From Escherichia phage vB_Eco_F31, in sequence record OP870147.1: a stretch of DNA of 64,000 nucleotides. One strand, written 5' to 3'. Position 1 is the stretch's first letter; each line of letters opens with the position of its first letter. The position numbers were made by a program, and so were the translations under genes. Shown in pieces: positions 13,258 to 60,224 of the stretch. The notes below the pieces were generated by a model, which worked only from the letters and a program-made list of their open reading frames with translations, was not told the DNA's origin and made no database searches.

Positions 13258-13281
13258 TCTTAATTGATTAAATCTTATTTT

Positions 13282-13305
13282 GGGAGACTTCGGTCTCCCA
13301 TTTTT
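13282..13305 (+). terminator. rho-independent terminator GGGAGAC-UUCG-GUCUCCC + U-tract after gene 23
   Basis: 7-bp GC-rich stem, UUCG loop, followed by ATTTTT. Confidence 0.6.
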
Positions 13306-13309
13306 GGTT

Positions 13310-13609: not shown

Positions 13610-13639
13610 ATAGTATCACATACCAAATACGTTGTAAAC
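13610..13639 (-). promoter_or_regulatory. early-promoter-like motif GTTTAC-N18-TACTAT
   Basis: Minus strand GTTTAC ... TGATACTATAGAC, then AGGAG and ATG of the 89-aa ORF. Confidence 0.45.
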
Positions 13640-36178: not shown

Positions 36179-36547
36179 TTATGCAACTTTAATCCAATTG
36201 TCTAAATTTAAAACACCTTTGGCTTTCATTTTTTCTATCAGGTTATCTGCTGTAATGCGTCCATTTTGATACCATGTAACATCTTCAGAGTAACCAGTTT
36301 CTTCGTCAACATATGTTTCTGAACGAATTTTACCGGTAATAATAGTTTTTAATTCGTATGTGTCACCTGTGAAAAAGTTTGCTAACACAATTTTCCAAGA
36401 GAAATCATCAGAAGGACCTTCAGGGGTCATACAACCTACGAACTCAAATTGCTCTTTGTATAACATCCACTGGAATTCTTTAATTTCGATAGCTTTATAA
36501 CCATCGTGGTCTTTACATTTGATGTATGAGTTCAGATTGATTTTCAT
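36179..36547 (-). CDS. hypothetical protein (122 aa)
   Basis: ATG at 36547 with GGAG RBS and early-promoter motif upstream. Confidence 0.55.
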   Translation of the reverse strand: MKINLNSYIKCKDHDGYKAIEIKEFQWMLYKEQFEFVGCMTPEGPSDDFSWKIVLANFFTGDTYELKTIITGKIRSETYVDEETGYSEDVTWYQNGRITADNLIEKMKAKGVLNLDNWIKVA

Positions 36548-36589: not shown

Positions 36590-36618
36590 ATAGTAACACA
36601 TCCTACAGGAGAGTAAAC
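36590..36618 (-). promoter_or_regulatory. early-promoter-like motif GTTTAC-N17-TACTAT
   Basis: Minus strand GTTTAC ... TACTATAGACTTGTACCA upstream of the 122-aa gene. Confidence 0.45.
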
Positions 36619-36654
36619 ATCTTTTTAAACTTTTTCTGCCCTAAACGCACAAAA

Positions 36655-36672
36655 GGGAGACCGAAGTCTCCC
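36655..36672 (-). terminator. rho-independent terminator GGGAGAC-UUCG-GUCUCCC + UUUU (minus strand)
   Basis: Same 18-nt hairpin as at 13282, 51876 and 60200; follows stop of the 59-aa ORF. Confidence 0.55.
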
Positions 36673-36677
36673 TAAAA

Positions 36678-36857
36678 TTATGCAACAACCTTTCCAAAAC
36701 GAGAAGCATCATCTCGAAGAACTGCACGTGCTCTGCGCATGATCTTCTCAACTGTTTGATTAATACGAGAGTTCGACCCACGCTTGTATCCAGCGCGTTT
36801 AGAGGTACCATCAACTTTCTTTTCAACTGCTTTCTTTGCTTTAGCTTGTTTTGCCAT
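36678..36857 (-). CDS. small highly basic hypothetical protein (59 aa), below the track's cutoff
   Basis: Hand-translated MAKQAKAKKAVEKKVDGTSKRAGYKRGSNSRINQTVEKIMRRARAVLRDDASRFGKVVA; followed by terminator hairpin 36655-36672. Confidence 0.5.
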   Translation of the reverse strand: MAKQAKAKKAVEKKVDGTSKRAGYKRGSNSRINQTVEKIMRRARAVLRDDASRFGKVVA

Positions 36858-37152
36858 TATAAATTCTCTTTAAATGAAAATGCAGGACTTATTGACATTG
36901 CCTGCGCAAGCCCTCAAGGGGAACATAGGTTTTGGATATTTAACGACAGGATAACCATAAACCCGTCATTATACCAACCACGACTTAGACAGATAACCTT
37001 TTTCTGACGCGTGATAGTACAAAATACATTCAAGAGGTACACCGTAAAACTGCCGGGGCCTTAAAACTATAATGATTCGCAAATCATTAATCAGACAGTT
37101 CGACGGCTCCTCGATTTTCTAGCCGCACTTAAGGTAGCGAATCACCTAAAAC

Positions 37153-37401
37153 TTATTTAAGGGTAATAACAAAATGACGTACTGCTTTACGAGCTGCAGA
37201 AGCCAAAGGCTTAGCATATTTCAGTTCATCTTTTGCTTCCAGTTCAGAGGCCAAAGCTGCCTGTACCGGGTTCAGATGTTTGAAATAATGCAGGATTTCC
37301 AGTGCTTCGGCTTCAACATCAATCGACGCGCCGTAGTTTTCGTGACCGTTATTCCATGCGTTTCGTTGCAGTTCAAGAGCGTGTTGTAATTGTTTAATCA
37401 T
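37153..37401 (-). CDS. rIII: lysis inhibition accessory protein rIII
   Basis: 82 aa, same length as T4 rIII; position adjacent to gene 31. Confidence 0.75.
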   Translation of the reverse strand: MIKQLQHALELQRNAWNNGHENYGASIDVEAEALEILHYFKHLNPVQAALASELEAKDELKYAKPLASAARKAVRHFVITLK

Positions 37402-37525
37402 TTTAAATTCTCAATTCGAGATAATATTTAGTAGCCACGTTCGTCTGAATTTCACCTTCTTTCGACAAGTCTCTCAGTTGTAGGCTACCGCTTAGAAGAG
37501 TGTTCTCTTCATATAGTTATTTATA

Positions 37526-37913: not shown

Positions 37914-37915
37914 TA

Positions 37916-38213: not shown

Positions 38214-38795
38214 TTATTCACCACAAAAGTTTCGGATTTGTTCCCAATTCAGAGAACGAAGATTATTACGAGAGTACTGAATTACTTCAATACCGGCTTG
38301 TTTTAGAATGTCTGCCCAATTTTCAGGAGATCGGTCGTATAATTCTGCATATACAACCTTTTTAATACCTGACTGTGTAATAGCTTTAGTGCAATCAGGA
38401 CACGGAGAAAGCGTCGTATATAACGTAGCACCTTCAATAGAATTACCTTTACGAGCTGCAAATAAAATTGCATTCAGTTCAGCATGGATTTCATTATTAG
38501 CAGACCATGCACTATGAGCGGCCCGATGTTCTTTAGCCAAAACAAAATTATCCACCCGTCCAAATGCTGTAGTGCCTTCTTTATGCCCAGCAACGATGAC
38601 CGGGCTTGGTTTATTCTTCAACCAACCGTTTTCGGATGCATGTTCGCAACAGTTTGTACCACCTGAAGGAGAGCCATTATAACCTGTAGAAATAATGCGT
38701 CCATCTTTTTCAATGACGGCGCCAACTTTCCATGAACAACATTTTGATTCTTGAGAAATCAGATATGCAATCTGAAGGTATGTGCTAGCTTTCAT
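38214..38795 (-). CDS. cd: dCMP deaminase
   Basis: 193 aa, same length as T4 Cd; zinc-binding deaminase motifs (HAE..., SPCPDC). Confidence 0.9.
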   Translation of the reverse strand: MKASTYLQIAYLISQESKCCSWKVGAVIEKDGRIISTGYNGSPSGGTNCCEHASENGWLKNKPSPVIVAGHKEGTTAFGRVDNFVLAKEHRAAHSAWSANNEIHAELNAILFAARKGNSIEGATLYTTLSPCPDCTKAITQSGIKKVVYAELYDRSPENWADILKQAGIEVIQYSRNNLRSLNWEQIRNFCGE

Positions 38796-39787
38796 TATTG
38801 AACCTTATTAATATAAGTTAACAGCTCTTTAGTTTGTTCCCAACTGATGCACGCATCGGTAACGGAAACGCCATAGGACATATTATCAGAAATTTTTTGA
38901 TTTCCTTCATGTAGGAACGATTCTATCATAATTCCTTTGACCAAATCATTAGCTGCTAAATTTTTACCAATACCAATTTGATTGCTATAATGCCCATCAG
39001 CGTTTGCATGGCTACAGTCAACCATTACATAATGATTCAGACCTACTGCCCTTGCTTTGTTAGAAGCTTCTTGAATATCAGAAGAATGATAGTTCGGGCC
39101 GTTGGTCCCGCCACGCAATACGATATGCGTATTCTGATTACCTTCAGCTTCAACAATGCCTACAGTACCATCGACGTCCATACCCATATACCGATGAGGC
39201 CAGGCGGCACTATACATCGCGTCTGTAGCTACTTTAATAGAACCATTGGTTGCGTTCTTGAAGCCTACGCACATCGGTAGACCTGAAGCAATTTCACGAT
39301 GTGTCTGACTTTCAGTCGTACGGGCACCAATAGCAACCCATGAGAAAATACCAGAAAGATACTTAATCGTGAATGGGTCTAATACTTCAGTTGCTAATGG
39401 AAGTCCCATACGTAGAAGTTTACGACACAATGTTCGTGCAACTATAAGACCGTGGTTCATATCAAAACTTCCGTCAAGATATGGATCATTTACAAGACCT
39501 TTCCAACCTACGGTAGTTCGAGGCTTTTCAAAATAAACGCGCATCACTAACAGAACATTAGGAAGACGAGTTTGAAGTTCAGCCAGACGTTTGCCGTATT
39601 CAACAGCAGCAATAGGGTCATGAATTGAACAAGGACCTACAACAATAAGTTTGCGTGGGTCTTCACCGTTCATAATCGAATTAACTTGTTCGCGATGAGA
39701 AGCCACTTGTGATGCGTAAGCTTCCGACAAAGGAATAATCTCGGCCAGTTCTTTTGGAGAAATAAGTTTTCCGACGACAGGTAACAT
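38795..39787 (-). CDS. 3-deoxy-D-arabino-heptulosonate-7-phosphate (DAHP) synthase, class I (AroG/AroF/AroH family)
   Basis: 330 aa; VGPCSIHD, VYFEKPRTTVGWKGL, GARTTESQ, DCSHAN, ESFLHEGNQ, SVTDACISWE align with E. coli AroG catalytic/metal-binding motifs; AAGGA RBS before ATG at 39787. Confidence 0.9.
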   Translation of the reverse strand: MLPVVGKLISPKELAEIIPLSEAYASQVASHREQVNSIMNGEDPRKLIVVGPCSIHDPIAAVEYGKRLAELQTRLPNVLLVMRVYFEKPRTTVGWKGLVNDPYLDGSFDMNHGLIVARTLCRKLLRMGLPLATEVLDPFTIKYLSGIFSWVAIGARTTESQTHREIASGLPMCVGFKNATNGSIKVATDAMYSAAWPHRYMGMDVDGTVGIVEAEGNQNTHIVLRGGTNGPNYHSSDIQEASNKARAVGLNHYVMVDCSHANADGHYSNQIGIGKNLAANDLVKGIMIESFLHEGNQKISDNMSYGVSVTDACISWEQTKELLTYINKVQ

Positions 39788-60194: not shown

Positions 60195-60199
60195 ATTTA

Positions 60200-60222
60200 G
60201 GGAGACTTCGGTCTCCCATTTT
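60200..60222 (+). terminator. rho-independent terminator GGGAGAC-UUCG-GUCUCCC + U-tract after gene 35
   Basis: Identical 18-nt hairpin followed by ATTTTT, then late promoter of gene 36. Confidence 0.6.
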
Positions 60223-60224
60223 TG

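Follow-up and report, generated by a model that had tools for sequence, protein, structure and literature searches.

Does a very short, highly basic reading frame behind a long intercistronic region of a T-even phage encode a protein, and if so what might that protein do? The frame lies in a 64,000-nucleotide stretch of Escherichia phage vB_Eco_F31 (OP870147.1; ‘the window’ refers to this whole stretch), which is a T-even phage of the Mosigvirus type. It was absent from the original gene track because, at 59 amino acids, it fell one residue short of the 60-aa cutoff. The first-pass annotation had reported a K/R-rich 59-aa protein below that cutoff, and the ORF listing returns the same peptide on the minus strand, with an ATG start at 36857 and the end of the frame at 36678: MAKQAKAKKAVEKKVDGTSKRAGYKRGSNSRINQTVEKIMRRARAVLRDDASRFGKVVA. 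The protein (6.56 kDa; 10 Lys, 8 Arg, 3 Asp and 2 Glu; pI 11.35) has a net charge of +13, with all of its segments positive. A TAA is found in frame at 36872..36870, four codons 5′ of the ATG, so that the ATG at 36857 is the sole possible start in the window; a MAK or MSK start is kept in 39 of 40 IMG/VR loci. The length of the ORF alone is within chance, given that 5.5 kb contain 52 ORFs with 30 aa or more, and its significance therefore rests on conservation.

36678..36857, minus strand: coding sequence assigned to the gp30.9 ortholog, stop included (ORF listing; identity to QBQ76967.1 and T4 gp30.9; PHROG 1427; dN/dS)

The locus (1.1 kb) shares 99.9% nucleotide identity with Escherichia phage vB_EcoM_WFL6982, a Mosigvirus, whose record annotates the same CDS, QBQ76967.1, with a protein that is 100% identical. 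BLASTP against T4 gp30.9 (NP_049823.1) gives 54 identical residues of 56 (96%; E 2e-35), and residues 1–57 match PHROG 1427 (E 2.4e-31), which carries the label ‘unknown function’. The gene order 31–rIII–30.9–30.8–30.7 is common to the window and T4, and the ORF occupies the position of the gp30.9 family: downstream of 31, upstream of 30.x and with an intrinsic terminator after it. The ORF is almost certainly the Mosigvirus ortholog of T4 30.9 and a genuine coding gene. It is not a new gene, T4 30.9 having been annotated for decades; a gene long present in reference genomes had slipped below the 60-aa cutoff. UniProt P17310 holds an older 97-aa model, the ‘11.1 kDa protein in Gp30-rIII intergenic region’, whose upstream start is unconserved, and some GenBank records retain for the 30.9 ORF the obsolete name ‘putative 11.1 kDa protein’ from this model. 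Several others (e.g. OR352946.1, OL964745.1, MT630408.1 and LR597660.1) name the 58–59-aa ORF ‘1,4-alpha-glucan (glycogen) branching enzyme, GH-13-type’, which is evidently a propagated annotation error.

By tblastn, 30.9 is present in 1006 of 50,697 phage records. A divergent Aeromonas-type branch, there also annotated 30.9, accounts for 81 further records, mostly of Aeromonas phages, and relatives extend to Aeromonas and Pseudomonas T4-like phages. Conservation in related genomes had been proposed at first pass as a check on the gene, and it comes out in favour: no stop interrupts the frame in any of the 40 IMG/VR loci despite amino-acid divergence of up to about 60%, dN/dS is below 1 and relatives annotate the CDS. 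Between the window and 28 scorable divergent orthologs dN/dS is 0.15–0.75 at dS 0.3–1.2, with 24 of the 28 loci at 0.15–0.5. Variable alignment columns at codon positions 1, 2 and 3 number 35, 30 and 51 of 54, the third position varying most, and the indels in the alignment are all multiples of three. An overlapping 61-aa ORF in an alternative frame is not conserved across related loci. The open frame, the third-position variation and a dN/dS below 1 therefore indicate purifying selection at the protein level.

It could be argued that the ORF is untranslated, and that its conservation reflects an RNA or DNA element in which the frame is open by chance. The time-resolved T4 proteome of PMC9697503 (Table S2) lists gp30.9 as ‘NA’ (not detected), the Shine–Dalgarno sequence is weak in the window phage, and ORFs of similar size are common by chance. 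The proteomic result is uninformative, since the longest tryptic peptide of the T4 protein, INQTVEK, is only 7 aa long. Against an untranslated ORF stand the frame kept intact at such divergence, the concentration of substitutions at third positions with dN/dS well below 1, the indel pattern, and a start codon and purine-rich ribosome-binding site that are both conserved. It is extremely unlikely that the ORF is untranslated, and translation would begin at the conserved AUG at 36857.

The elements that surround the gene, and from which its expression may be reconstructed, are as follows.

37518..37525, minus strand: T4 late-promoter consensus TATAAATA upstream of rIII (motif scan)
37449..37421, minus strand: sigma-70-like TTCAGA-17-TATTAT before rIII (motif scan)
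37153..37401, minus strand: rIII, 82 aa, the upstream cistron (PHROG 1457, E 7.6e-43)
36865..36872, minus strand: in-frame TAA (36872..36870) and SD-like AAGAGA (GAG at 36868..36866), read from the sequence, with an A/U-rich spacer
36649..36673, minus strand: intrinsic terminator with an 8-bp G+C-rich stem, a UUCG loop and a U-tract (fold z = -3.0)
36590..36618, minus strand: T4-early-type promoter before 30.8, with GTTTAC (36618..36613), 17 nt and TACTAT (36595..36590)

The 30.9 start codon had been described as lacking a clear Shine–Dalgarno sequence. The sequence is indeed weak in the window, but a purine-rich AAGAGA is present 8 nt from the AUG, where most other lineages carry GGAAGA or AGGAA; AAGAGA is the putative ribosome-binding site of 30.9. 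At the other end of the gene, a hairpin begins 5 nt past the stop codon (36680..36678) and reads AGGGAGAC-UUCG-GUCUCCCU, then UUUUGU. Its fold (61 nt) has an energy of -20 kcal/mol, equalled by 1 of 200 shuffles. At least four versions of the stem are found among lineages (GGGAGAC, GGGACTC(C), GGGAACC and GGGGCTCC), and the position of the hairpin and U-tract is kept across lineages, Aeromonas phages included, with compensatory changes in the stem. The terminator hairpin noted at first pass is thus upheld by its fold, by its conserved position and by the WFL6982 record, in which the same hairpin is annotated as an ARNOLD terminator; a simple terminator scan missed it because the T-count threshold was not reached. 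The hairpin GGGAGAC-TTCG-GTCTCCC with its T-tract is also a repeat (family D11) found at no fewer than three sites in the window: 13277–13306 and 60195–60224 on the plus strand, and 36655–36673 on the minus strand.

Following the terminator, GTTTAC is found in most related loci. The early promoter at 36618..36590 starts a separate unit that runs from 30.8 to 30. Terminator and promoter together separate 30.9 from 30.8, so that 30.9 ends the 31–rIII–30.9 unit; the earlier placement of the ORF at the end of the 30.x operon has to be abandoned, as this minus-strand gene lies upstream of 30.8 and is split off from it. Early-promoter cassettes of the form GTTTACA...GATACTAT recur in the window at 13610, 29228, 40174 and 43706 (families D4–D6). 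Directly past the 30.9 terminator and the early promoter there is a sharp mosaic boundary: gene 30.8 (36179–36547, minus strand; 122 aa vs 110 aa in T4) has 38.5% amino-acid identity to T4 30.8, whereas its neighbours 30.7, 30.9 and rIII have 91–93% (30.9 by BLASTP 96%).

The order rIII–leader–30.9 is found in the window and in 19 of 20 mapped related lineages. Further upstream of rIII lies gene 31, which encodes a GroES-like co-chaperonin and is preceded by a MotA-box-like element at 37915 (motif scan). T4 rIII reportedly has promoters of all three classes, early, middle and late (PMC9409239). No convincing terminator was seen in the rIII–30.9 interval, and we therefore infer that the rIII promoters feed 30.9, which would be the last cistron of the gene 31–rIII transcription unit. 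In Aeromonas phages 25 and CC2 and in a Pseudomonas phage, 30.9 with its immediate terminator is found downstream of gene 31; these phages are without rIII and the long leader, and the 31–30.9 spacer is 47–90 nt. Elsewhere on the minus strand of the window, a 330-aa ORF (38795–39787) adjoins the dCMP deaminase gene; in Mosigvirus AV110 the corresponding ORF carries the annotation DAHP (2-keto-3-deoxy-D-arabino-heptulosonate-7-phosphate) synthase, an auxiliary metabolic gene.

Between rIII and 30.9 lies the leader, in which three hairpins can be placed.

36858..37152, minus strand: intercistronic leader of 295 nt, from the rIII stop to the 30.9 AUG (conserved modules)
37123..37140, minus strand: module A1 hairpin, just past the rIII stop, UCGC / GCGG around a conserved UACCUUAAGU loop
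36943..36969, minus strand: module C hairpin, AUGACGGG / CCUGUCGU around a conserved GGUUAUC loop
36882..36905, minus strand: stem-loop GCAGG...CCUGC, about 25 nt upstream of the ribosome-binding site (folding of 20 lineages)

The leader is 93% identical to that of T4 over the shared 244 nt, compared with 85–91% nucleotide identity for rIII, 30.9 and 30.7, and is 51 nt longer by an inserted module. The 51-nt insertion includes TGgTATAAT (36976..36968), an extended -10-like element. Across 20 lineages the leader varies in length from 146 to 395 nt, and its modules recur in differing order among divergent phages. It had been called a long structured leader at first pass, a description that holds for its parts: taken whole, the 295 nt are no stabler than shuffled sequence (z = -0.68), but single hairpins have covariation support. 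In module C (20 lineages), 85.6% of cells are paired vs 29–53% in slid controls, with 3 compensatory pairs. This hairpin may form an H-type pseudoknot by pairing of GGUU in its loop with AACC downstream at 36931..36928 (region 36928–36969, minus strand). The loop-to-downstream pairing comprises 4–6 bp in the window and T4 vs 7–12 bp in several lineages, and the long pairings differ in sequence, for example UUAGUAGUU/AACUACUAA and UCAAGGUU/AAUCUUGG. Support for module A1 is modest, with 5 pairs, 2 of them compensatory, given by RNAalifold for 9 lineages. Most of the 20 folded lineages have a stem-loop of unrelated sequence shortly before the ribosome-binding site (examples are GGGAGC/GCUCCC and GAACUGG/CCAGUUC), which may be functional.

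Searches of Rfam with the window leader and related leaders gave no match, even at E values up to 10, and ARAGORN found nothing in the leader sequences. The modules were also considered as dispersed repeats, an idea that was rejected: the window holds no other copies, and module B is single-copy in each genome. The modular structured rIII–30.9 RNA appears to be undescribed. Conserved beyond the neighbouring genes, covarying and absent from Rfam, the leader is the part of the locus most worth a separate look.

An RNA module of about 150 nt is found in the rIII–30.9 region of many T-even-type phages and is absent from the window and T4. Among the related loci it lies at L040:1162-1311 and is also present in L009, L011, L013, L014, L016, L018, L020-L023, L028, L035, L037, L039-L041 and L043. 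It folds into seven helices; compensatory changes mark 22 of the 45 pairs, and the proportion of paired cells is 96.5%, vs 29–41% in slid controls. One copy per genome is found in 404 phage records, with identity of at least 93% across genera; the module is mostly unannotated, has no Rfam family and no tRNA call, and is a candidate for an undescribed phage RNA.

What the protein does has been approached in T4 through its expression and its phenotype. The T4 30.9 transcript belongs to the ‘early’ class (PMC9697503 Table S2), and knock-down of T4 30.9 with dCas13d (CRISPRi-ART) gave a score of 0.04 (p 0.26, ‘Not Fit’; PMC11879866 supplement). Since this knock-down carried no fitness cost, T4 can do without 30.9 in laboratory E. 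coli. A toxicity screen of Mosigvirus AV110 gave six growth-inhibitory early proteins, which exclude the 30.9 homolog (43rd CDS); the paper is silent on whether this homolog was screened. No functional study of 30.9 was found in a literature search, nor any Ribo-seq data for T4. Driukas and Nivinskas (Biologija, 2003) reportedly studied how rIII and 30.9 are expressed in vivo. gp30.9 is a small T4 early protein, with conservation that reaches from T-even coliphages to the T4-like phages of Aeromonas and Pseudomonas, and such broad conservation, set beside dispensability in the laboratory, suggests a host-takeover or condition-specific role.

The gp30.9 family shares a core motif, [ST][KG]R-x-G-[YF]-K-R-x-[ST]-[NG]-x-R-[IV]-[ND], followed by a helix; the window version is SKRAGYKRGSNSRIN (residues 19–33). 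Four residues never vary among 22 divergent members (R21, K25, R26 and R31), and four more hardly do (G23, Y24, S28 and N29). The family N-terminus is Lys/Ala-rich, FG-x-P-K/R is often found at the end, and distant members carry extra histone-H1-like AKKA/KPKA tails. AF2, run with 30 sequences, gave a mean pLDDT of 66, with a confident helix only at residues 30–54 and an N-terminal half of low confidence. This helix is amphipathic, with a single hydrophobic stripe and a hydrophobic moment of 0.59.

Neither the protein nor the 22 family members had a significant match in Pfam or NCBIfam. A PDB sequence search, and Foldseek with the low-confidence AF2 model against the PDB and BFVD, gave no meaningful match; the fold searches carry little weight because AF2 was confident only in the C-terminal helix. 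The first-pass annotation had suggested a histone-like protein, for which these searches offer no backing: there was no match to an HU, IHF or H-NS domain model in Pfam or NCBIfam, and none to a PDB sequence or fold. An exhaustive profile search of 1.84 billion representatives returned only 19 clusters, made up of small basic family members apart from fragments and one repetitive spurious match, and no cellular homologs. Four apparent resemblances were set aside. A helix match to SlmA (E 0.13) and a match to MreB-like_C (E 0.14) are noise, and hhalign gave probabilities of 0.06% for ribosomal bL34 (RxHGFRxR) and 0.25% for ribosomal bS20, in each case with the E. coli sequence.

Taken as a whole, the explanation that we favour—a 30.9 ortholog, a coding gene, and a polyanion-binding accessory protein as its product—is likely. 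The functional part of it is put forward tentatively: gp30.9 may be a small early protein with an accessory role whose partner is a polyanion, RNA or the ribosome being somewhat likelier than DNA. Before binding, the protein would be disordered or helical. It would then engage this partner via the invariant R-x-G-Y-K-R-x-S-N-x-R motif and the N-terminal tail rich in Lys and Ala, while the amphipathic C-terminal helix (residues 30–54) could provide a second contact or mediate self-association. Judged from sequence features, namely the +13 charge, the disordered Lys/Ala-rich N-terminus and the RxGYKRxSNxR motif, nucleic-acid binding is plausible.

High positive charge fits the binding of an acidic protein equally well, and an acidic protein partner is the main rival to polyanion binding. 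In this case the basic motif and the amphipathic helix would dock onto an acidic host or phage protein, such as a ribosomal protein (for example S1), GroEL/gp31 or RNA polymerase, rather than onto nucleic acid. RxGYKRxSNxR followed by FG-x-P-K/R is a precise pattern and not generic charge, and the single hydrophobic stripe of the C-terminal helix points the same way. The genomic company of 30.9, which is always with gene 31 across Straboviridae and with rIII in Tevenvirinae, has also been weighed here, and the rIII product is reported to bind ribosomal protein S1 (PMC9409239); this linkage may, however, reflect shared transcription alone. Lys/Ala-rich tails, present also in distant members, are typical of nucleic-acid binders, and a purely protein-directed role is considered doubtful. 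A narrower proposal is that gp30.9 binds hairpins of its own rIII–30.9 leader RNA and so exerts autogenous translational control or control of processing. It would account for a small, very basic protein encoded directly behind an unusually long leader (146–395 nt) that is more conserved than the adjoining genes and has conserved loops and covarying stems. Yet Aeromonas phages 25 and CC2 and the Pseudomonas phage have only the 47–90-nt spacer, without modules, module content and order vary by lineage, and the largest module is missing from the window and T4. As the modules are absent from the Aeromonas and Pseudomonas relatives, the leader is not an obligatory partner and its link to gp30.9 is speculative; we regard such autoregulation as improbable.

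The idea that gp30.9 is a virion-internal, DNA-associated protein, packaged and injected with the genome, had also been raised at first pass and is now disfavoured. It draws on small size and high positive charge only. To our knowledge, gp30.9 is not among the described T4 virion components. The N-terminus, MAKQAKAKKAVEKKV (MAKQAKAKK...), is without an (L/I)xE site, AVE and TVE being the sole contexts of Glu, and the locus is an early/middle accessory region and not a structural module. The T4 transcript, moreover, is early, not late (PMC9697503). Because of the early transcript, and because the protein has neither a capsid-targeting sequence nor a cleavage signal, a virion-internal role is very improbable. 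Polyanion binding is retained as the preferred reading of gp30.9. Identifying what the invariant RxGYKRxSNxR motif binds would close one gap in the T4 gene catalogue; no paradigm change would follow.

Several known systems offer points of comparison. T4 gp32 (with its leader pseudoknot), RegA and the ribosomal-protein operators are cases of autogenously regulated RNA-binding proteins with structured leaders. The 30.9 locus resembles them in having a basic protein behind a conserved leader with covarying hairpins, and possibly an H-type pseudoknot; it differs in that binding of gp30.9 to the leader is only proposed, and in the absence of the leader from Aeromonas and Pseudomonas relatives. The T4 internal proteins IPI, IPII and IPIII are, like gp30.9, small and basic. 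IPI–III and Alt carry an N-terminal capsid-targeting sequence that is cut at (L/I)xE by the prohead protease, whereas gp30.9 has no such signal and its T4 transcript is early. MotB, a small basic T4 early protein that co-purifies with H-NS (PMC7827196), differs from gp30.9 in that no similarity of sequence or fold was detected; gp30.9 is also much smaller than non-specific DNA binders of the MotB type, and its binding is only predicted. Both proteins are early, dispensable in the laboratory and strongly basic, and they are alike in their presumed accessory role in host takeover. T4 gp30.9 itself (NP_049823.1 / UniProt P17310) is 58 aa long vs 59 aa here, with V-GD in place of VDGT and a C-terminal tripeptide QKA in place of VVA; neighbours, terminator position and conserved start are the same in both phages.
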